From NCBI GenBank assembly GCA_009015555.1, contig GCA_009015555.1_3613.1: DNA of 64,000 bases; one strand, given 5' to 3'. The stretch is from a phage. Below the pieces are notes generated by a model that worked only from the letters and a program-made list of their open reading frames with translations, ran no database searches and had not been told where the DNA came from. Below are positions 7,059-63,200 of the stretch, in pieces. Positions within the stretch are counted from its first letter, which is position 1. Each line of letters opens with the position of its first letter. The position numbers and the translations under genes are program-made.

Positions 7059-7635
7059 GGAAACACCCTCCGATCAGGATGGCGTCGGCGAGGTCGGTAG
7101 CCCCGCCATTCTTTCCAGACTTATTATAGCCCTTCAGGAATCCCGGATGCAGGATCTCGCAAACACGCATCATTTCGTTTTTGCCCATCTTCACCTTGAC
7201 CATCTTCGTCCCGGCATCGTTCATGGTTTCCTGTTCTTCACCCGGTAACCACTTACGTGCCCAAGACTTAACCGATGTCGGCGCGATGACGTGAATTTGG
7301 TCCATAGTATACCCGTCACGAAGAAGAGTCAACTGGATGCTGTAAAATAATCCAGCCAGGTCCCTTGTGGCATCGCCAACCGACCCCAGGCTCAACGATT
7401 CAAGCACGATGTGATCCACATCGAACGAATCACACACCCCGGCAATCTGCCCGGTGATGTAGGCAATCTGTTCAGCAGTGTGCTCGAAGTACATGCACCA
7501 ACCTTTGGAGTCCTTGGCCTTCTTCTCTGACCCCGTGGTGTGGAGTACCTCCTTAAAGATCGGAATCCCGTCTTCCAACACCACATAGGCACATGAAGAC
7601 AAACTTTGGTCAATCGTCAATAAGCGCATCTTCAT
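7006..7635 (-). CDS. RuvC-like Holliday junction resolvase
   Basis: N-terminal MRLLTIDQSLSS...YVVLEDG and C-terminal DLADAILIG resemble RuvC catalytic Asp motifs. Confidence 0.58.
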   Translation of the reverse strand: MKMRLLTIDQSLSSCAYVVLEDGIPIFKEVLHTTGSEKKAKDSKGWCMYFEHTAEQIAYITGQIAGVCDSFDVDHIVLESLSLGSVGDATRDLAGLFYSIQLTLLRDGYTMDQIHVIAPTSVKSWARKWLPGEEQETMNDAGTKMVKVKMGKNEMMRVCEILHPGFLKGYNKSGKNGGATDLADAILIGGCFLERNGERLGFNLKERNT

Positions 7636-7945
7636 CCTTAGCAATAAAATGGTACTCGTTCATCAAAAACACATAGTTCTTGATGACCTTTTGAACTTCG
7701 TCGTACACCGTGAACATGGCGTACTTGTCCCCCGGGTAAGGAACACCCACCGGGTATACTTCGCACAGACTACGCACCCGTGGGTCGTACCACTGGATTC
7801 GCCAAGGTTCTTCCAGCATGGTCCACGGCTCCTCGATGAGATAGAAGGTCTTTGAAGCCCCGGGCACGAATGCCGCCCGGAGTTCATCTGCCTTAATCAT
7901 CTCCTCGACGCGAACATCCAAACCGCCAGCGTCGTTTTGACTCAT
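7610..7945 (-). CDS. hypothetical protein (111 aa)
   Basis: ORF only. Confidence 0.45.
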   Translation of the reverse strand: MSQNDAGGLDVRVEEMIKADELRAAFVPGASKTFYLIEEPWTMLEEPWRIQWYDPRVRSLCEVYPVGVPYPGDKYAMFTVYDEVQKVIKNYVFLMNEYHFIAKDEDALIDD

Positions 7946-9057
7946 TACACAACCCCCACTTTACGAAGAACATGTCCCAGAGTGGTCTTATCATCCGGGG
8001 TGCGCTTCATGTACACCGCTTGGAAGATAACAGAGGCCCACTGCCCGGCGCTGAACTTGCGATCCACGCCCATGTGATCAGTGAATGCCACCCCGTCAGG
8101 GAACCACTCCTTGTACTGATTTACGATCGCTTCCCACATGGCCTTCTCATCCTGACACGGAGAGATGACTTGGAAGGCAGAGGTCTCGCCAAACTTGATC
8201 TTGTCGAAGTTTTGGTATGGCTTCACGTTATCCGATTGATCACCGAACAACATTTGGTAACCAAAGAACTTCTGGCCCCAGCCTTTTACCTTACCCTTCT
8301 CCATCCAGATCTCCCCCATCGACTCATCAATAAGCCACGGGAGCGGATGCTTCCAGTCGCGCTCTGTTGAGTCACGCATGGTATTGAAGATAAGGCCAGG
8401 GCACTGGACTTGATCTTTGTCGAATGATGCCACGATATAGTTGAACTTGCCAGTCTTTTTGTAATGCAACCAGCCCTCATACTGTTTCATGGTCAGATAA
8501 TCATCCGCCTCGATCCCGTCAATCACGATCGCGCCGTATTTCCGTTGAACATATTCACGGGTATCCGACAGCAACAACGGGCGAACAGTGTCCTCACGGT
8601 TGCCTTTGTAGATTTCCGGCGTCGGCAGCGCCAACCGGAAGTTTCCGGTCCCACCCAAGACACCGAGTCCATTTGTCGTACCCATGTGTTCAAGGATCGC
8701 GTTGATCTTAATCTTCAGCAAGTGCAGGCAGTTTTCCACAGGTTCAGGGTACTGCTTGTCCGTAATTGTGAAATCATCACGGGTCCAAGGAGTAAACTCC
8801 CGGCCCGCTGCCGCCATCTTCGCCTCCATGTTGGTGTTCTGGTCCTTCAGCCACCCGCCGACTACTGTTTTCTGTCGGCCCCAAAACTCCGTCTTGTTCT
8901 TGAACTCCATCTGACGACCGGATTTGTTGTGGGTTGCGATAATGGTACGCTTTTCCGCGCCCGCCGCCGCAACATAACACGTCTGATCCAAATCAAGAAC
9001 AATAGTAACATCATCCGTAACGATATCCTTCAGGTTTTCTACAACGGGATAACCCAT
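7945..9057 (-). CDS. Flap endonuclease / 5'-3' exonuclease (RNase H-like, FEN family)
   Basis: GIEADDYL, FDKDQVQCPG and MLFGDQSDN motifs typical of phage 5'-3' exonucleases. Confidence 0.72.
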   Translation of the reverse strand: MGYPVVENLKDIVTDDVTIVLDLDQTCYVAAAGAEKRTIIATHNKSGRQMEFKNKTEFWGRQKTVVGGWLKDQNTNMEAKMAAAGREFTPWTRDDFTITDKQYPEPVENCLHLLKIKINAILEHMGTTNGLGVLGGTGNFRLALPTPEIYKGNREDTVRPLLLSDTREYVQRKYGAIVIDGIEADDYLTMKQYEGWLHYKKTGKFNYIVASFDKDQVQCPGLIFNTMRDSTERDWKHPLPWLIDESMGEIWMEKGKVKGWGQKFFGYQMLFGDQSDNVKPYQNFDKIKFGETSAFQVISPCQDEKAMWEAIVNQYKEWFPDGVAFTDHMGVDRKFSAGQWASVIFQAVYMKRTPDDKTTLGHVLRKVGVV

Positions 9058-53497: not shown

Positions 53498-54142
53498 ATG
53501 GCAGAGGAAATTGTACTGAAGGATGTTAACCACATCCACCCTCTGCCGGATTTCGTGAAGGGAGGTTTTGATTACGTCCCTTCCGATATTTTCACAGGCA
53601 AAGAGAACTTCGAGAAGACCCTCCGGATCTTGTTGGAGCGCCTTGAGTATATCGACCAAAAGATGGTTGAACTTGCTGAACTGCGTACCACATTGAACGC
53701 AGAAGACGCCATCCTTGACGAAATCGGCAGACAGTTGGGCATTTACCGTAACGGCCTGAATGACCCCGAGTACCGTGCTGTTATTATGATCTTGACCGGG
53801 AACAACTCCAAGAGCGGGACCCGCGCCGATATCATTGCCACCCTGAAGCAACTCTTCGGGGAAGACGGAGTTACGACCTACAAGGGGCACAACTACCGTC
53901 TCGATATTAACATTTTCAATACCTGTATGGAAGTCACCGACATCCTGCCGGAGATCATCGACATGCTTCCCTTGGTCACTCACCTCCGTGTGGTTGAGAA
54001 CCAGGGTTACCCATTCGGTTTCAACGGTGACGCACAGGCATTTGGGTTCGCATCGGTTTATGACTCAGAGCGTACCGGGGCAGGTGGCATGTCCACCCTA
54101 ATTTATGTATCGGACGACGAGGAAGACTGGTCGTTCACGTGA
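53498..54142 (+). CDS. baseplate/tail protein (I-like, putative)
   Basis: Position following J-like gene. Confidence 0.4.
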   Translation: MAEEIVLKDVNHIHPLPDFVKGGFDYVPSDIFTGKENFEKTLRILLERLEYIDQKMVELAELRTTLNAEDAILDEIGRQLGIYRNGLNDPEYRAVIMILTGNNSKSGTRADIIATLKQLFGEDGVTTYKGHNYRLDINIFNTCMEVTDILPEIIDMLPLVTHLRVVENQGYPFGFNGDAQAFGFASVYDSERTGAGGMSTLIYVSDDEEDWSFT

Positions 54143-54152
54143 GGAGATTTTC

Positions 54153-55808
54153 ATGGCTAAACCAAAGGACCCTATTTACGTTTGGGCTGCTGCCGACGTA
54201 AACCTTCCAGGCACGGGTCGTCCTAACAAATCAAAACCTATTGACGACTTGCTCGCCAAGGGTTACGATAAAGGACAAAAGCCAGCAGCAGAAGAGTTCA
54301 ACTATATCCTGAATATGTCCTCTGCCTGGGTTAACTGGATCGTCAACGAGAAGTTTCCAGAGCTTGAGGCAGAAATCGCCCGGCTCTTGGCAGAACTTGA
54401 AAACCGCATCAACCAGCAGTTGGCTGTTATCCGTCAGGATATTGCCCAACTGAAGCAAGATGTCGCAGACCTTCGTCGGTATGTCGATCAGAAGGTTCAA
54501 GAACTGAAGCAAGAAATCCAAGGCGTCCGAAACGACCTGAACAAACTGCGTCAAGACTTTGATGCTGCGATTGCTCAAGTCAACGGACGAATTGATGACC
54601 TTGAGCCACGCCTTGTTCCAATCGGTGCCGTTATCCCTTGGCCTGGGGCTACAGTCCCTAACGGCTGGTTGGAGTGTAACGGCCAGGTGTTTAATACCGG
54701 GACAAACCCTAAGCTGTATGGAGTCTTGGGGCGTAACGTTGTTCCTGACTACCGTGGTCTCTTCCTGCGCGGCTGGGCACACGGCTCCGGTGCTAACGAT
54801 CCTGATGCTGGTCGTGCTCTCGGTTCTGTTCAGGGTGACGCCATCCGTAACATCACGGGTTACTTCCCTGCGGATATCGGTCAGTCAGGCTGGATCGGTC
54901 GTTACGTTGGTGGTGTGTTCCGGGACGATGGCGCACTGACCTCTGGTGACCAAGGATCTCGTAGTGGTGAAGTACGTAAGTATAGCCTCGATGCTTCCCG
55001 CCAGGTCCCAACGGCCCCGGAAAACCGTCCGAAGAACGTCGCGGTTATGTACATCATCAAGACTGACCAGGCACAATCCTCCGGAGGCAACTCACCAACG
55101 GCGATCGTCGTCTCTCCAGACACAATCACCAACCGTGTAGGATACACCGTCAAAGCGACTGCGAGTGTACTCCCTGCTTCCATCGCAGGTCAATACCCTG
55201 TAACATGGTCTACTCAAAATGCTGCGGTGGCAACGGTTGATGGTTCTGGCAACATCCGCCTTGTAGGGCCGGGTGAAACCAACATCATCGCTTCCATCTC
55301 TACCGGGATGAACGTAGCGATCCGTGTGACGAGCTATTCTGTTCTGACCAGCATCTCCATTGCTGATCCGGGCCAGATTCCGGTCACAGAATCGAAGATG
55401 CTGGTTGTTACCAAAAACCCGGGGAGCGCGAACGAACCTCTGCAATTCCTGTCAAATAACTCCGGTGTTGCGACTGTGAACGACGCAGGTTACGTAACTG
55501 GTGTTTCCCCGGGAAGTGCCACAATCACGGTTCGTGGTACTCTTTCCGGAGTGTCATCAACTCGTTCAGTGACTATTATCCCTGAGCAAGTGGAGGAGAG
55601 CGTACAGGACAACCGTCTCGGTGCGGTAGGATCTTACATCCCACCCGGCAACGAAATCAGTTGGACTTTCCAAGCCCCTCAAGGTTGTGCTCTGACAGGT
55701 ATCATCGTACAAGACGTCGGGTCCAACTCCGCCGACAACATCGGTGGTGTTTATTACAAACCGATCCAGAAGAAAGTTAACGGCGTCTGGGTCACGATCA
55801 CGGGGTAA
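54153..55808 (+). CDS. Tail fibre protein with coiled-coil, tail-collar-like and Ig-like regions
   Basis: RBS GAGGAG; heptad region LAELENRINQQLAVIRQDIAQLKQDVADLRR; IPWPGATVPNGWLECNGQ...PDYRGLFLRGW resembles phage tail-collar domain. Confidence 0.62.
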   Translation: MAKPKDPIYVWAAADVNLPGTGRPNKSKPIDDLLAKGYDKGQKPAAEEFNYILNMSSAWVNWIVNEKFPELEAEIARLLAELENRINQQLAVIRQDIAQLKQDVADLRRYVDQKVQELKQEIQGVRNDLNKLRQDFDAAIAQVNGRIDDLEPRLVPIGAVIPWPGATVPNGWLECNGQVFNTGTNPKLYGVLGRNVVPDYRGLFLRGWAHGSGANDPDAGRALGSVQGDAIRNITGYFPADIGQSGWIGRYVGGVFRDDGALTSGDQGSRSGEVRKYSLDASRQVPTAPENRPKNVAVMYIIKTDQAQSSGGNSPTAIVVSPDTITNRVGYTVKATASVLPASIAGQYPVTWSTQNAAVATVDGSGNIRLVGPGETNIIASISTGMNVAIRVTSYSVLTSISIADPGQIPVTESKMLVVTKNPGSANEPLQFLSNNSGVATVNDAGYVTGVSPGSATITVRGTLSGVSSTRSVTIIPEQVEESVQDNRLGAVGSYIPPGNEISWTFQAPQGCALTGIIVQDVGSNSADNIGGVYYKPIQKKVNGVWVTITG

Positions 55809-56329: not shown

Positions 56330-56370
56330 CCTTTCAGGCCGGGTATTTGCCCGGCCCCAGGAGAACACAC

Positions 56371-56709
56371 ATGGCTCTTGATATTATGTTGATTCTGAAG
56401 TCTCTTTGGGGTTTGGTGACTTTCCTTCTGTTGGGGGTACTCAAAATCTTTTATTCCGACTTCAAGAAAATGCAGGAGAAGCAGGACGCTCTTGAAAAAG
56501 ATCTGATTCGGCTTCGTGGTGAGATGGTCAGCAAAGATAGTATTGATGACATCCTGGATCGTAAGATCAAGCATATCACCGACACTATTGGCGACATTCG
56601 TGCCGACATCACTGACATGCGGAAAGAGGCCAAAGAAGAGACTAACGCTCTTCAGAAGGACATCCGCTCCGTACTTAACGTCATGTTGGAGAGTCGTCGC
56701 AACAAATGA
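56371..56709 (+). CDS. small membrane protein with coiled-coil C-terminus
   Basis: RBS AGGAGA; N-terminal TM LILKSLWGLVTFLLLGVLKIF. Confidence 0.45.
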   Translation: MALDIMLILKSLWGLVTFLLLGVLKIFYSDFKKMQEKQDALEKDLIRLRGEMVSKDSIDDILDRKIKHITDTIGDIRADITDMRKEAKEETNALQKDIRSVLNVMLESRRNK

Positions 56710-57164
56710 TCACGTCCATTATTTTTGGACTCTGCTTCGTCATCCTGGCAACTCGCCCGGATGCCGGGGCCAAGATTATGGCGGGGCTTGGCCTCGCCTA
56801 TCTTGTTCTCGAAAACCTGATGTTTTGGTTTTTCAGCGGGGCCGAGTTCTTCGACATCACGCTGTACTTTACCACAGCTTGGGCATTGGATTCAATACTT
56901 TTATTTGCCGTGGCACTCTTTGTCCGAGGGTATCGTCAGGTCGCTGTTTTGGCGCTGGCCCTGCCTCTGATGCTGGTACAAGTATTCGCAATCCAATATC
57001 CAATCTTATTCCCCGATTGGGTTTATTCCTTCGCCGTACAGGATGCACACAGGTATTTCATCGAGGTGTTTATCTTCGTCTATTCCTGGAAGGACAATAC
57101 AGTCTCCGAGTGGCTCAGAACAGGAACCGTTCTGGCACTTGTTATTGTTGCCCATCTGGTGTGA
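56706..57164 (+). CDS. polytopic membrane protein (about 4 TM)
   Basis: Four hydrophobic segments; ATGA-coupled to upstream membrane protein. Confidence 0.5.
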   Translation: MITSIIFGLCFVILATRPDAGAKIMAGLGLAYLVLENLMFWFFSGAEFFDITLYFTTAWALDSILLFAVALFVRGYRQVAVLALALPLMLVQVFAIQYPILFPDWVYSFAVQDAHRYFIEVFIFVYSWKDNTVSEWLRTGTVLALVIVAHLV

Positions 57165-57187
57165 CGCATTGATAATGAAGGTGTTCT

Positions 57188-57451
57188 ATGCTAAAATTCT
57201 TCAAAGACCTCGTAACTTCCCCCATCGAACCTGACAAGGCTTCCCACACGAAGTTCTGGTCAAACGTGGGTATGGCGGCTATGACGGCAGTTTTCCTCTG
57301 GTACGGCTTCAACAACACCCTCCCGGAGTGGTATGTTTGGGTTTATGCACCCACAGTAGTAGCACCTCACCTTCTGAGTGACCTCATCAATCTTCGTTGG
57401 GGTATTGCCAAGAAAGAGTCGGAAGTTTCCAACAACGAAGAATCCAAATAA
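57188..57451 (+). CDS. small membrane protein (87 aa)
   Basis: Hydrophobic segment MAAMTAVFLWYGF, charged C-terminus. Confidence 0.42.
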   Translation: MLKFFKDLVTSPIEPDKASHTKFWSNVGMAAMTAVFLWYGFNNTLPEWYVWVYAPTVVAPHLLSDLINLRWGIAKKESEVSNNEESK

Positions 57452-57463
57452 GAGGAGATTCGC

Positions 57464-60400
57464 GTGTCATCCAATACTGATATCATTGCCCTGTTGAGCA
57501 GCGATGCTGACAAGGCAGTTGACCAGATCATCGAAGACTCCAAACGTCTTCACATCGTGGTCAACGGGACGGGCACCGAGCAGGCTGTTGCAGAGGATGG
57601 GAGCTTGCTCCCGTCTGTTCGCAAAGCGCTGATCGACAACCTGTATTTCAAAACCCCACCTCTTCCCTGGAGAAACGGTGGGTCTGTCAACGAGTTCAAC
57701 CAGCTTTACTCCTTCACCGACGTAAGCGGGAACACCACTTGGTGGTATGCGCCCGGAGCTACGGTATCAAACCCGGTTGTGATGCGTGACAGCCCGATCA
57801 ATGACGGCAAGTTCAAGGTTTTCTTGGACAAAACCAACATCGCCGATATCTATGCCCCTCTGAACTCTCCGAACTTCGTCGGTAACCCCCGTGTGCCTAC
57901 CCCGGCCCCTGGCGACAACAGCCAAACCGTCCCGACAACCGGGTGGGTTCAGTCAGAGATGCAGGACCTGGAAGACCAGATCATTGCCTCTATGAAGGGT
58001 GATTTCGAAAACATCACCGTCCGTAACGATGCCGTTCTCAAAGACACGTATATCAGCGGTGAGTTCATTGTCACCAGTGATAAGTTGTCCGCTGCCAGCG
58101 CCGAAGCAACCTTCCGTCGTATTCGTGTGGTCGGCACCGCAGACAATACTGAGATCGCTTTTGAGCAGAACACCGCACCTCCAGCGGGGGCGAGCACAAA
58201 GACTAACATCAAGCCGTACACGATGTCAACAGGCATCTTGACGATTGACCAGTTGAAAGGAAAATCTGCCCAGATTGGTGATGTTGCTGTTGCCACGGAC
58301 TCCCTGAATGTCGATGGGTACATGCGTGGGGATTACCTGCATCTGGAAGGTAACAACCGAAACAGCACAACCCGCCCTCAGTTGATCGTTGATGGTATTG
58401 CAGAGATCAATACGCTGCGGGTGACTGGAACCATCGAGGGTGTAAAAGCTGATGTTGATGGCTTGGATATTCATCCTCGTAGTGTTATCATCGACGAAGG
58501 TTTGACGGTTGGCAAAGATACCTCCCTGACAGGAAAGCTGACTGTCGGCGGTACAACCAAGGTGAATAACCTGGAGGTTACTGGAACCCTGTCTGGTGTT
58601 GCTATCAGTGTTGACGGTAAAGACATCAAGCCCCGCTCTGTTAACACCGGGAACTTGGTTGCTACTGGCAACGTGCAGATCAGTGGGACGACCACTGCAA
58701 CCGGGAAGATCACAACTCAAGATCTTGAAGTGCTTGGCACACTGACAGCTAACCTCGACCTGTCCGGGTCGGATCTGAGTGTTGATAATATCAACGTTGC
58801 AGAAACCGCGACAATAAAGGATTTGGTGGTTACCGGAAAAACAACCGGGGTCAAAGGTGACGTTGATGGAACCTTGATCAAGCCTTCTTCTGTTCAGGCA
58901 ACGGGCCTTGTGTCAGCAGGTTCATTGTCTACCAATGCAAATGCCTCTATCGGGGGTAACCTGACGGTGACTGGAGAGTTCCGTCCCGCCAGCATGGAAA
59001 CAGGTGCAGTTGAGGCAGATAGTCTGGTTGTTAATGGTAACATTTCCCAGACGACAGGAACAACCTCTGTAGTCAACCTGGTTGTCACAGGAACGACAAC
59101 TGGCGTAACAGCCGATGTCAATGGTGACGACATTTTGCCTCGCTCCGTGACTACTACTGCGGGGGTTAAAGTCGGAACCACCCTCGACGTAACTGGAAAG
59201 ACTACCCTCGGAGATGTTGATTTCACTGGGGTTGTTACCGGGCTTGAACTTGATCTTTCTCAAAAGAACGTGACAGTTAAGTCAATTGCTGCTGTAGATC
59301 CTTCTGCATTTGGGGATGTGACGACAGATAATCTGACCAACAGCGAGAAGATCATCACTCAAGACATCCAAGTTCTGGGTGATATTCTGGATGCTGCGGG
59401 GAATCCTGTCAACACCTTTGATGTTACAGGCAAAGATATTCTGCCAAACAGTGTTCAATCTGCGACGTTTATTCGCGGAAAAACTCTGGACATCAGTGAC
59501 GGTTCCACCCTCCGTGGCCCTGTCGAGTTCCGTAACGGGCTGACAGTAACTCTTGGAGACATCATGTCGCCCCAAGGGAAGGCAACGTTCAACGATGTAC
59601 AGGTCAATGGTGCATTGACGGACGCTAACGGCAACGTCATCGGCTCCGTTGAAAGCATCAAGGGCAAGGACATTGAACCACGCTCCGTTGTGGCTACCGT
59701 GTCTGTACAGGCCCCTCGTCTCCAATCAACTGGGGATATTTTGGGCCAGAGCGCGACAATCACCAATAACGTCTCTGCGGGGACCTTGGGTGTTTCCGGG
59801 TTGACAAACCTGGCAGAAACTCGTGTGAATGCGAAGCTAACAGGGCAATCCACAGAGTTCGAAACTCTGCTCCTGAAGCGCGTTGCTGGTCAAGATACAC
59901 CTCGCTTGGTTGTGCAGGGGGATTCAGATCTCCAGGGGGACCTGAACGTCTCGGGGACCATTACCGGGATTGTTGACCTGACGGCTCAAGATATCCGTAT
60001 GAACAGCCTTGTGCTCGCCGAGGATCTTTCTGCAAGGAATATTACAGGATCAGGCACGGTTCAGGGCGCTAATGGAATTTTCGGCCAGTCTTCCCAGCCC
60101 ACCACCCAGTACGGTTTGCAGTCTCTTTCCAGCGCTAAGGTAGATAAAAACCTCGATGTTGGAGGAAACTTGCGGGTAACTGGGGCCATTACCGGAAGTA
60201 TGGACTTCACAGGGAAGGATATTACCCCACGGAGTGTCGCGGCGTCAGCCGGAATCGGGGCCGTGGATATCACGGCATCCGGCACGACAACGACGAAGGA
60301 CCTTGTGGTCACCGGGACGACAAGTTTTGCGGGAGACAGCGTTTTCAATGCAGGCCAGGTTAAGTCCAAGTTGTTCACCGTTGACATTGGTACTGATATC

Positions 60401-60688
60401 ACTTCAGGATCGGGGTCTTGGATTCCAGACGGGCTTCAGTCCGTTTATAACGTGACGGTTACCGCCGATACCGTTATCGGTTCCATTGCTCAGTTGCCGG
60501 GCGCGGGGACTTACTTCTTCTATATCGAGCAGGATGCTGTTGGGGGCCACACTGTGACCTTTGACCCAGCTTACCTCAAGATTGGTGATGGAGAAGTGGC
60601 TACAGCGCCAAACGCAATCTCTCTGGTCCAAGTAATCTACCGTGGTAAAGGTTCAATCTTCGACTACGTGATTCTTAACCGAGGTTAA
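57464..60688 (+). CDS. Long tail fibre protein with internal repeated modules (GTG start)
   Basis: 1074-aa protein with repeated VTGT..GV..DVDG.DI.PRSV units; RBS GAGGAG before GTG. Confidence 0.62.
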   Translation: MSSNTDIIALLSSDADKAVDQIIEDSKRLHIVVNGTGTEQAVAEDGSLLPSVRKALIDNLYFKTPPLPWRNGGSVNEFNQLYSFTDVSGNTTWWYAPGATVSNPVVMRDSPINDGKFKVFLDKTNIADIYAPLNSPNFVGNPRVPTPAPGDNSQTVPTTGWVQSEMQDLEDQIIASMKGDFENITVRNDAVLKDTYISGEFIVTSDKLSAASAEATFRRIRVVGTADNTEIAFEQNTAPPAGASTKTNIKPYTMSTGILTIDQLKGKSAQIGDVAVATDSLNVDGYMRGDYLHLEGNNRNSTTRPQLIVDGIAEINTLRVTGTIEGVKADVDGLDIHPRSVIIDEGLTVGKDTSLTGKLTVGGTTKVNNLEVTGTLSGVAISVDGKDIKPRSVNTGNLVATGNVQISGTTTATGKITTQDLEVLGTLTANLDLSGSDLSVDNINVAETATIKDLVVTGKTTGVKGDVDGTLIKPSSVQATGLVSAGSLSTNANASIGGNLTVTGEFRPASMETGAVEADSLVVNGNISQTTGTTSVVNLVVTGTTTGVTADVNGDDILPRSVTTTAGVKVGTTLDVTGKTTLGDVDFTGVVTGLELDLSQKNVTVKSIAAVDPSAFGDVTTDNLTNSEKIITQDIQVLGDILDAAGNPVNTFDVTGKDILPNSVQSATFIRGKTLDISDGSTLRGPVEFRNGLTVTLGDIMSPQGKATFNDVQVNGALTDANGNVIGSVESIKGKDIEPRSVVATVSVQAPRLQSTGDILGQSATITNNVSAGTLGVSGLTNLAETRVNAKLTGQSTEFETLLLKRVAGQDTPRLVVQGDSDLQGDLNVSGTITGIVDLTAQDIRMNSLVLAEDLSARNITGSGTVQGANGIFGQSSQPTTQYGLQSLSSAKVDKNLDVGGNLRVTGAITGSMDFTGKDITPRSVAASAGIGAVDITASGTTTTKDLVVTGTTSFAGDSVFNAGQVKSKLFTVDIGTDITSGSGSWIPDGLQSVYNVTVTADTVIGSIAQLPGAGTYFFYIEQDAVGGHTVTFDPAYLKIGDGEVATAPNAISLVQVIYRGKGSIFDYVILNRG

Positions 60689-60690
60689 TA

Positions 60691-60716
60691 CAGCCGCCTT
60701 CGGGCGGCTTTTATTT
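60691..60716 (+). terminator. Rho-independent terminator
   Basis: agccgccttcgggcggct followed by tttatttt. Confidence 0.65.
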
Positions 60717-60726
60717 TGGAGGTATT

Positions 60727-61923
60727 ATGTTTCCTTTTGCTATTATTCCACCGTTTGTTCTTTCAGGCAAGGAAAAAATCAAGCAGTTTTCGGTTACGTC
60801 TTACGACAGTATGGTCCTGACTGATAAGGGGAACCTGTATGTTACAGGATTCAACCGGGTGGGTGAGCTTGGTGTTGGGGACACAACTAACCGAAATAAC
60901 CAATGGGTTTTGGTAATGCAGGACGTAAACTGGATTGCAAGCAACCGTGAGAAGCTGTGGGCAATTAAGAACGACGGTTCCATTTACACCCCGGATCTTC
61001 GGTCATCCAGTACAACTGCATATACTTGGCAAATCGACACGGTAGCACCTGGAAGTATTGGGGATTTGTCTGGGGATAATATCAAGGAGATTTACAGCGA
61101 CACAGAGAGCGTATATATCCTCAAAAAGGATGGTTCACTGTGGTATCTGGGAAATAACTCTAAAGGCCAAGCTGGAAACGGGGGAACTTCCTTAACCACA
61201 CGCTTTGTGAAGGTTTCAGATGGTGTGGTATCTTGGTCATCCAGTGGACCCACTGTTGTTTTCGTGAAAACAGACGGATACTTCTGGGGCTGCGGATCAA
61301 ATTCCCGAAATATCATTTCCTCTGCTGGCAGCAGTATCACAACCCCTACCCGGATGTTTAGCACCACCCACGCTGACGGAGGTGTTGTAACAGATTACAC
61401 GCTGGCCTCTGACCAAGCGTTTTTGATCAGATATAGTAATGGTAAATATCGTACCAAAGGTCTCAATATCGGACAACTTCCTTCAGGGGATGCAAGTCCA
61501 TACAATACCCTTACGGACGTTCCTGACGGATACACCCCCGGTGATGGAACGGAGCCTCTGGTAAGCAAAACAGGAGGGGTGTCGGCCTCTGGAACTTGGC
61601 CTAACTATAGTGGTCTTTTCTTCTACCATACGGGAGGGAAATTCATAGTCACTGGTCAAGCAAGCGGGAGAATTTCCGGGACCAGCCAAACCAGCGGTAC
61701 ACTCTCAAACTGGACCAATGTCGATGCGGCAAGTGACGAGATCCCATCTATCAAGGGAATGACCTTCGGACTGGGTTGGGTTGCTGCCTACAACGATACG
61801 CAGATTCTGTACTGGGGGTATACGGGAAACTCCTCTGCATATCCGGTTGTGGGATACCTAATGCCCGGACCTTCAAGGCTTGAATATGTGGCACGTTTTG
61901 CAACCCCGCCGATCGAGGCATAA
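60727..61923 (+). CDS. RCC1-like repeat (beta-propeller) protein
   Basis: Recurrent G.N..GQ.G.G / LG.G units (GFNRVGELGVGD, GNNSKGQAGNGG, GLNIGQLPSG). Confidence 0.5.
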   Translation: MFPFAIIPPFVLSGKEKIKQFSVTSYDSMVLTDKGNLYVTGFNRVGELGVGDTTNRNNQWVLVMQDVNWIASNREKLWAIKNDGSIYTPDLRSSSTTAYTWQIDTVAPGSIGDLSGDNIKEIYSDTESVYILKKDGSLWYLGNNSKGQAGNGGTSLTTRFVKVSDGVVSWSSSGPTVVFVKTDGYFWGCGSNSRNIISSAGSSITTPTRMFSTTHADGGVVTDYTLASDQAFLIRYSNGKYRTKGLNIGQLPSGDASPYNTLTDVPDGYTPGDGTEPLVSKTGGVSASGTWPNYSGLFFYHTGGKFIVTGQASGRISGTSQTSGTLSNWTNVDAASDEIPSIKGMTFGLGWVAAYNDTQILYWGYTGNSSAYPVVGYLMPGPSRLEYVARFATPPIEA

Positions 61924-61926
61924 TAA

Positions 61927-61955
61927 AAAGGCACCCTAACGGGTGCCTTTCTTTT
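61927..61955. terminator. Bidirectional terminator between convergent genes
   Basis: aaggcaccc-taac-gggtgcctt hairpin flanked by A-run upstream and T-run downstream. Confidence 0.6.
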
Positions 61956-61967
61956 TATCATGACAAC

Positions 61968-63200
61968 TTAGAAGGGGATGTCATCGTCGAAATCAACTTC
62001 CGGCGGAGTCATGTCGATATGACCGTTGCTGCTTGTCGCAGGAGTCGATTGTAGAGTCTCCGGTTTAGGGTCCACCTTAGGGTCAGGCTGGGACTGTGCA
62101 GTTTGTGCCACAGAGCCACCAGAACTTTGCTCACCCTTGACGTATGCAGATACGCCCGGGACAACCTCGCTCATGAGACCACGAGCATAAGCCAACAGCT
62201 TACCAGTGATCTCTTCTGGATTGTCGTTCTCACCAACCTGGATATCACGGGTGGCGTTCAGAACAGCATGGCCCACCATCGCACCCAGATCGTAATCAGA
62301 CATACCCTTGTTAGCCGGATCATTTGCAGCGTCCAGCTTCAGATGTTTGGTGACATCATGAACAACCTTGGCTACTTCCACCACCGGAGGGATAGTCAGA
62401 CCGCTACGACGCAGGTTCAGGGCACCGTTCAGTGCATGGCCCGTTTCCATACCGGAGTTGTCCTTCTTGAAACCACCTTTGGAACCGCCCGCACCTGCAC
62501 CAGCAGAACCTTTTGGACCGTAGGCTTTGAAACCTGACAATGTACCATCCTCAGCACGTTGCCCTGCCAGGCGACCACCCACCTGAACTTGGGCGATCTG
62601 CTCTTTGTTCAGAACCACAGAGACTTCATTACCGTTCTCATCCTTCACCACAGCGCCTGTATCGCTCAGGGAGAGGATTTCTCCGTAAACCTTAGTGGTT
62701 TTGCCACCTGGGGCGTTGGACGACGCAGAGGACGTCTGAGAGCCTCCTGCATTGCCTGCCGGGGCGGCATCACGGGCACCGGATTTGTCGGTAATAACGA
62801 TCTTGGATTTCTTACCCTCCGGGGCAGAGCGTTCGTTGCCGTCACTATCAGTCCACTTACGGATCTGGACAGGAACACGAATTGCCATACCCGGCTTCAG
62901 GTCAACCCATACTTCGCCTTCTTTTACCTGATACTGGCTTTCGTATTTCATGTTCTTCACTTCGTGAGTTCCGAAGCTGATCCACACCTGATCTTCACCG
63001 TTTTTAACCAGCAGAGATGCACGGTGAGTGGCAACGATAGTCTTACCCTTGTTCGGACCCTTGTTAATGGGGGTAATTTTCGGACTGCCGTCCTCGTTGA
63101 TGCGTTTAATGTTGATACGTTCGATAGTACCAACAGCCAGGCTTACCGTAGAGTTGTCGATCGGGTTAACTACTTCGGTAATTACTTTAACATCAGACAT
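61968..63200 (-). CDS. SSB-like protein with C-terminal DFDDDIPF tip motif (410 aa)
   Basis: C-terminus ...PPEVDFDDDIPF matches the acidic tip of bacterial SSB from memory; long Gly/Ala/Ser-rich linker; RBS AAGGAG. Confidence 0.5.
   Translation of the reverse strand: MSDVKVITEVVNPIDNSTVSLAVGTIERINIKRINEDGSPKITPINKGPNKGKTIVATHRASLLVKNGEDQVWISFGTHEVKNMKYESQYQVKEGEVWVDLKPGMAIRVPVQIRKWTDSDGNERSAPEGKKSKIVITDKSGARDAAPAGNAGGSQTSSASSNAPGGKTTKVYGEILSLSDTGAVVKDENGNEVSVVLNKEQIAQVQVGGRLAGQRAEDGTLSGFKAYGPKGSAGAGAGGSKGGFKKDNSGMETGHALNGALNLRRSGLTIPPVVEVAKVVHDVTKHLKLDAANDPANKGMSDYDLGAMVGHAVLNATRDIQVGENDNPEEITGKLLAYARGLMSEVVPGVSAYVKGEQSSGGSVAQTAQSQPDPKVDPKPETLQSTPATSSNGHIDMTPPEVDFDDDIPF

Follow-up and report, generated by a model that had tools for sequence, protein, structure and literature searches.

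Whether repeated modules within a phage tail fibre gene are an active substrate for recombination, and whether changes in their number direct the phage to other hosts, is the question raised by the long tail fibre (LTF) gene at positions 57464–60688 (plus strand) of a 64,000-nucleotide stretch of phage DNA (contig GCA_009015555.1_3613.1), hereafter the window. The gene is a single open reading frame (ORF) of 1,074 amino acids (aa), which the ORF listing recovered with exactly the coordinates given in a first-pass annotation of the sequence and which homology supports. That annotation had described an internally repetitive fibre with at least six copies of a ~27-aa unit, and had regarded such units as substrates for recombination-driven host-range variation. 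We consider it likely that the product is a homotrimeric Certrevirus fibre in which the units are modules of the shaft, blocks of modules are lost by events at short homologies, and a distal cassette forms the exchangeable and potentially specificity-bearing end.

The gene is essentially a known one: Cronobacter phage PBES 02 has a near-identical gene, and a fibre for which a partial structure and Pfam families are available is its orthologue. The PBES 02 gene, annotated as 'putative tail fiber protein 2' (ADU18_0140), matched over its full length with 98.7% nucleotide (nt) and 99.7% aa identity; since the LTF match is of this order, the window appears to be PBES 02-like phage DNA. PBES 02 belongs to the genus Certrevirus, subfamily Vequintavirinae, and also carries the same downstream gene (99%); with essentially no difference between them, the window represents a second isolate of this LTF gene. 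In a phmmer search against PDB sequences, the only genuine hit was to the phiTE baseplate (9CUY/9MJN; E = 0), namely to its 793-aa 'putative tail fiber protein', and the alignment to chain 9cuy_g covered query residues 1–511 and 807–1071. This phiTE protein (phiTE_241, chains g–i; gp241) is ~80–90% identical over the N-terminal ~510 aa, aligns again at the C-terminus (aa 807–1071), contains the same motif in six units and lies in the same gene order, although it lacks a 296-aa block (units 5–8) that the window protein keeps. The LTF also matched PHROG 4549 ('tail fiber'), and for P0001, a protein 100% identical to it, matches to the families PF26208 (Phage_phiTE_241_N) and PF26209 (Phage_phiTE_241_C) are available as precomputed annotation. 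The order short tail fibre (STF; Collar and Big_2 domains), Caudo_TAP chaperone, three small membrane proteins, LTF and downstream protein was found in the window and in all relatives examined, namely PBES 02, CR3, CR8, PcCB7V, phiTE, F1M1E, KaOmega, A73 and DU_PP_I. By its N- and C-terminal homology to phiTE gp241 and by this gene order, the protein belongs to the Certrevirus/phiTE-type LTFs, and its homologues CB7_36 (PMC7344957) and W70_107 (PMC11370258) were identified as virion proteins by mass spectrometry. Orthology to the phiTE LTF, PHROG 4549, gene order and virion mass spectrometry of the homologues thus agree with the first-pass assignment as a long tail fibre. A 100%-identical protein has also been deposited as Escherichia coli KAB3178468.1 (F9047_11085), on a contig of 149,946 bp that has the size of a full Certrevirus genome and lies within an assembly labelled E. 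coli; its source was either a phage carried in the culture so labelled or contamination.

We searched the protein for the repeat unit using several procedures. A regular expression for VTG..G....DG.DI.PRSV matched at aa 320, 372, 456, 541, 587 and 905, and PRSV-type ends were additionally matched at aa 659, 737 and 844. The self dot-plot that had been proposed as a check (BLOSUM62) bore out the repetition, with six off-diagonal 22-aa windows scoring 59–73, compared with a maximum of 55 in 20 shuffles. A hidden Markov model (HMM) built from the four best copies detected three more copies in aa 586–1074 at 26, 20 and 13 bits, compared with a maximum of 6.4 bits in 500 shuffles. An iterated profile, built over 12 homologues, placed ten units with starts at aa 313, 365, 417, 449, 534, 580, 632, 707, 825 and 901 and a partial unit at aa 942, and nine of the ten scored above all 300 shuffles in a leave-one-out test. 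The motif first reported is therefore real, although the six copies were an under-count, at least nine being present. The consensus is t..(D/N)L.VTGt.tGv..DvdGkDI.PrSV, with a conserved core of 27–39 aa; the units are dispersed at spacings of 32–118 aa, and the first three start at intervals of 52 aa, each motif being followed by a spacer of ~20 aa. Together, the ten units and the partial one define a repeat-bearing shaft at aa 313–954 (positions 58400–60325, plus strand).

The repeat is present at the protein level only. TRF detected no tandem arrays in the DNA at a score of 30 or more, and the longest exact DNA repeat within the gene is 12 nt, a length attained in 42% of codon shuffles. Nucleotide identity among the four strongest units is 54–60%, and the longest exact run in register between units 4 and 5 of the window is 5 nt. 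A self-BLASTP of the LTF returned the identity alignment alone. The array is accordingly not a tandem repeat in the sense of adjacent units with a constant period that can be detected in DNA.

We then compared the number of units among relatives. Among ~30 long-form clusters (~1,064–1,094 aa, 40–100% identical) that include CR3, CR8, PcCB7V, F1M1E, KaOmega and many metagenomic members, ten units were found in all but two A73-like or distant members, which have nine. Lower numbers were found in P0024, a metagenomic protein (790 aa, seven units), phiTE and CB7 (793 aa, six units), P0032 and P0033 (734 aa, five to six units) and DU_PP_I (722 aa, five units). Seunavirus- and Vequintavirus-type fibres (581–721 aa) contain two to four units, and jumbo-phage fibres (1,374–1,869 aa) four to eight. 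Relative to the ten-unit form, the variants showed losses only, and gains were never seen.

The losses could be resolved to single junctions. A block corresponding to aa 511–806 of the window protein (units 5–8 with their spacers; positions 58994–59881, plus strand) is absent from phiTE, CB7 and DU_PP_I. Between phiTE and PcCB7V, nt 1–1546 are 98.6% and the last 842 nt 99.3% identical, and a single in-frame gap of 888 nt, with the junction microhomology GCGTTG, removes this block. DU_PP_I has a further deletion of 213 nt, in which unit 9 is lost and whose junction shares AGACCT...TGT. In P0024 (Logan SRR21148734), one repeat period of 85 aa (255 nt; aa 485–569, positions 58916–59170, plus strand) is deleted exactly in register, so that unit 4 is fused to unit 5 by a crossover inside the VTG(K/T)TTG codons. 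P0024 is also chimeric: its shaft is 93.5% identical in nucleotides to the window, its final 537 nt match PcCB7V at 98%, and the joint shares 7 nt. All junctions had ~6–12 nt of homology, every product was in frame, and several breakpoints clustered at aa 807–900. A conserved DNA 'recombination island' at aa 807–843 was considered and rejected, the window and phiTE being only ~83% identical in nucleotides there. CRISPR-escape deletions of phiTE, which Watson et al. in 2019 reportedly found in the tape-measure gene, were not used as evidence.

Long DNA identity between units with crossovers inside it, which would characterize homology-driven repeat recombination, was not found at these junctions. 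Since the junctions share ~6–12 nt and the units are only 54–60% identical in nucleotides, homologous recombination between repeats is unsupported, and judging from the junction sequences the block losses are short-homology (illegitimate or slippage-type) events. With this repeat architecture the shaft tolerates the loss of blocks, and in some cases the repeats help to set the register in which the ends are joined. Virions of CB7 contain its short form of the LTF, with fibres that measure 42 nm (PMC7344957), and the deletion forms are therefore functional.

The distal end is clearly exchanged, as a cassette. Compared with CR3 and CR8, the window is 96% identical up to position 60045, shows no similarity from 60046 to 61920 and is 94% identical from 61921. 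Such a sharp loss of distal similarity between near-identical genomes is characteristic of a mosaic, cassette-type fibre locus. The exchanged segment (60046–61920, plus strand) comprises LTF aa ~861–1074, including a C-terminal beta-sandwich, and the whole downstream gene. The latter (60727–61923, plus strand) encodes a 398-aa RCC1-like (beta-propeller) protein with matches to PF13540 (29.9 bits, cut-off 22), partially to PF25390, and to PHROG 4219, and a close copy was found only in PBES 02 (99%). Compared with phiTE, the last 200 aa of the fibre are 36% and the downstream protein 25% identical. Among 11 phages, four types can be distinguished in which the fibre tip and the downstream protein vary together, and the positional homologues CB7_37 (PMC7344957) and W70_106 (PMC11370258) of the downstream protein are virion proteins by mass spectrometry. 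The RCC1-like protein is thus probably associated with the fibre tip in the virion, and because the two are exchanged jointly, co-vary and, as the CB7 and W70 proteins indicate, reach the virion, we infer that they interact at the distal end. In PcCB7V, an HNH homing endonuclease gene lies directly 3' of the fibre cassette (positions 7584–8015 of its record, L003), whereas no such gene is present at that position in the window or in the Cronobacter phages; in DU_PP_I, this place is occupied by a minus-strand ORF of similar size that carries no annotation.

The comparison of relatives also bears on host range. Among Pectobacterium phages, those with 10, 6 and 5 units have one tip in common (91–99% identical over the last 200 aa) and downstream proteins that are 96–98% identical; because of this shared tip and downstream gene, the number of units does not track the host genus. 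The proposed comparison of repeat number thus held in so far as the number varies among relatives, although the ten-unit form is strongly conserved and no relation to the host appeared, and the proposal that repeat number underlies host-range variation is not borne out, given ten units kept in nearly all long forms to 40% identity and one tip in phages with 10, 6 and 5 units. Host-linked change is more likely to lie in the swappable tip cassette than in the number of units.

The ends of the protein have structural counterparts or confident models. Residues 1–171 (positions 57464–57976, plus strand) form an N-terminal baseplate-attachment region that is near-identical to phiTE residues 14–171, which were modelled as an LTF trimer by cryo-EM and in which an N-terminal helical bundle is followed by a globular domain, a short beta-helix and a second, short helical bundle, the N-terminal bundle being described as a 'rip-cord' with the sheath initiator (PMC11972413). 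We predicted the full LTF as a monomer with AlphaFold2 (AF2) and obtained a mean predicted local distance difference test (pLDDT) score of 57.9, with values of 70–84 at aa 20–120, 35–60 in the shaft and 85–91 at aa 975–1072, where the model contains the C-terminal beta-sandwich. Low values in the shaft together with confident ends are as expected from an obligately intertwined trimeric shaft. A Foldseek search with the monomer retrieved the phiTE N-terminus as its sole match (9cuy_h/i/g, E 1e-14 to 1e-20). The N-terminal segment aa 16–130 (positions 57509–57853) is also ~39–41% identical to the N-termini of colanidase/colanic-acid-degrading tailspikes of phi92/phAPEC8-like phages and, at the same level, to proteins of Aeromonas and Vibrio phages; by these similarities, the N-terminal domain appears to be a baseplate adaptor common to very different receptor-binding proteins.

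The shaft itself is rich in Thr (14%), Gly (11%) and Val (11%) and contains no Cys, and residue autocorrelation for a beta-helix period gave only weak peaks, at lags 11 and 34 (z ~3.4). Across 43 homologues (33–88% identity), the Gly/Pro positions of the motif vary little or not at all, being among the few shaft residues with such conservation. In the PDB, the unit profile matched the phiTE LTF alone, besides chance matches to ribosomal proteins, and among 1.84 billion proteins it retrieved ~47 representatives (50%-identity clusters), all apparently fibres of the LTF family or of jumbo phages; the motif was also found in Vequintavirus-type, Seunavirus-type and jumbo-phage fibres. The LTF had no match in NCBIfam, and a Pfam scan at E <= 1 did not return described tail-fibre repeat families such as PF03335 and PF03406. 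The scan returned Bactofilin (PF04519; a single-chain right-handed beta-helix) at aa 406–500 with 21.4 bits, below the gathering threshold of 27.9; given this score and the virion-fibre context, we rejected this identity and treat the protein as showing a weak profile likeness and not as a member. Some LTF relatives are automatically annotated as 'polymer-forming cytoskeletal protein'.

These features suggest the following organization. Through residues 1–171 the fibre would attach to the baseplate wedge and to the sheath initiator, as in the phiTE structure, and residues ~180–960 would form a long, intertwined beta-helical shaft whose building modules are the ~30-residue units and their variable spacers, the conserved Gly and Pro of the units probably forming turns. 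The units probably derive from an ancient internal duplication and have since diverged, which would leave their likeness in the protein and none in the DNA. The number of modules would set the length of the shaft, with the 1,074-aa form predicted to measure ~70–78 nm when scaled from phiTE (793 aa, predicted 51 nm). In-frame joins between module boundaries would still be foldable, and rare deletions at ~6–12 nt of homology, as in phiTE, CB7, DU_PP_I and P0024, might survive for this reason. The distal end, that is, the beta-sandwich and the co-inherited RCC1-like virion protein, which are exchanged jointly, is probably the exchangeable part and could carry specificity through a role in receptor binding.

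Two other accounts of the repeat concern its origin and its dynamics. The view of the first-pass annotation, that the repeats are an active recombination substrate and that changes in unit number retarget the phage in the manner of a contingency or host-range switch, could draw on the different unit numbers of phages with 97–99% identical flanks, on the one deletion that runs exactly from unit to unit in register (P0024) and on the clustering of breakpoints at aa 807–900. However, DNA homology between units is absent, the longest exact repeat being that expected from codon shuffling and the best units reaching only 54–60%; the changes are losses only, from a ten-unit form that persists in relatives of 40–100% identity; and the Pectobacterium phages with 10, 6 and 5 units have the same tip and downstream gene. 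We accordingly regard this view as unlikely: what remains of the claim that the repeats are substrates for recombination is the clean in-frame block deletions between near-identical flanks, whereas the homologies used are short and the units too diverged. That the repeat only reflects the Thr/Gly/Val-rich composition of a beta-protein, as opposed to an internal duplication, is very improbable, even though the shaft is compositionally biased, the unit at aa 580 fails the leave-one-out test and Pfam offers the sub-threshold Bactofilin match alone, because composition-preserving shuffles never scored as high as the LTF (none of 500, and none of 300 for nine units) and the units align over ~30 columns with ordered, position-specific residues. 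The shuffle controls in effect refute this reading.

The units could also serve as repeated sites at which the shaft weakly binds its receptor, such as the flagellar filament, so that lateral binding would be multivalent and the number of units would tune avidity. The Certreviruses phiTE, CR3 and CR8 depend on flagella (PMC7344957, PMC11659082), charged or polar positions of the motif (D.DG.DI.PRS) are conserved besides the turn residues, and the motif is limited to the fibre family retrieved by the unit profile. However, it also occurs in Vequintavirus- and Seunavirus-type and jumbo-phage fibres, Vequintavirus and other broad-host-range genera of the subfamily are described as using enterobacterial common antigen or lipopolysaccharide (LPS), not flagella (PMC11370258), and the authors of the phiTE study argued that the short fibres contact flagella first (PMC11972413); we therefore find this function of the units improbable. 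Also unlikely are a further version, in which the units are more than passive rungs and form a fibre-specific binding or hinge element by which the long fibre lies along the flagellar filament and binds it multivalently, and, separately, a two-protein distal adhesin of a structurally undescribed type formed by the C-terminal domain and the RCC1-like propeller. If binding of the units to flagella were true, the natural variants with 5, 6, 7 and 10 units would tune avidity or reach, and the fibres of Certreviruses would constitute a natural 'length/valency series' for flagellotropic adsorption.

The organization that we prefer, with shaft modules and an exchangeable distal end, has its own difficulties, and the following results weigh against it. 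An AF2 pseudo-trimer (three copies of aa 304–420 joined by Gly-Ser linkers, 14-row alignment) reached a mean pLDDT of only 39.4, and because of this value our assignment of the shaft fold rests on an AlphaFold3 statement in the phiTE paper (PMC11972413); neither an experimental nor a confident predicted structure covers one repeat unit. The failure of the unit at aa 580 against the 300 shuffles counts against ten modules as well. Cassette type III, found in six records (L003, L004, L005, L007, L009 and L012) with tips that are 86–99% (last 200 aa) and downstream proteins that are 91–98% identical, is common to phages of Pectobacterium, Enterobacter hormaechei, Klebsiella aerogenes and Pantoea dispersa, and the tip cassette therefore cannot alone set the host genus. 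Finally, because ten units are stable over deep divergence (to 40% identity), the length of the LTF seems to be under constraint.

Fibre shafts built of repeats are a familiar theme. The shaft of the adenovirus fibre consists of triple beta-spiral repeats of 15 residues, in numbers that differ from one serotype to another, and it resembles the LTF in being a trimeric rod of diverged repeats with whole-repeat length differences among relatives; in contrast, the two have no sequence relationship and differ in repeat length and likely in fold, the structure of the LTF shaft being unsolved. The distal fibre loci of T-even phages (gp37/gp38), in which Tetart et al. in 1998 and Sandmeier in 1994 are said to have described adhesin segments swapped by recombination at conserved motifs, are similar in that a mosaic fibre gene combines a conserved proximal part with exchangeable distal modules, as in the P0024 chimera. 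Unlike the conserved DNA boxes of the T-even phages, the junctions described here use ~6–12 nt of microhomology, and the repeats have no DNA similarity to one another.

What is new here, modestly, is the exact map of the modules, the natural variants that have lost modules, together with their junctions, and the cassette of tip plus propeller. The practical value is likewise modest. The analysis provides a corrected map of the fibre (attachment domain, ten-module shaft and tip cassette) for phages proposed in the biocontrol of Cronobacter and Pectobacterium; the natural loss of one to five modules at module boundaries supplies ready designs for shortening the fibre, and for retargeting, the segment to exchange would be 60046–61920, which holds the LTF tip and the downstream gene, as opposed to the repeats. 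The unit also marks a structural gap, as a repeat that lacks a solved structure and occurs in so few protein clusters.

The signals and genes flanking the LTF complete the description of the locus. The start codon is GTG and lies 5 nt 3' of the Shine-Dalgarno sequence AAGAGGAGA (57450–57458). Directly 3' of the TAA stop codon, a GC-rich terminator-like hairpin followed by a T-run was found at 60692–60709 (plus strand), at the same place as a terminator in the annotation of phiTE. A second strong terminator-like hairpin with a T-run, at 61927–61950, lies 3' of the RCC1-like gene and faces a convergent gene at 61968–63200. Upstream, the short tail fibre ORF (54105–55808) encodes a Collar domain, two Big_2 domains and a coiled coil at aa ~80–170, and its start overlaps the upstream baseplate gene; the short fibre gene of PBES 02 is annotated with 1,656 nt, matching a start at the ATG at window position 54153 (MAKPKDP...). 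Between the chaperone and LTF genes, positions 56347–57451 contain three genes for small predicted membrane proteins (~112–120, 152 and 87 aa), which are unexpected inside a fibre module and are kept in position in all Vequintavirinae relatives examined (phiTE_238–240; PF26221, Phage_phiTE_239).

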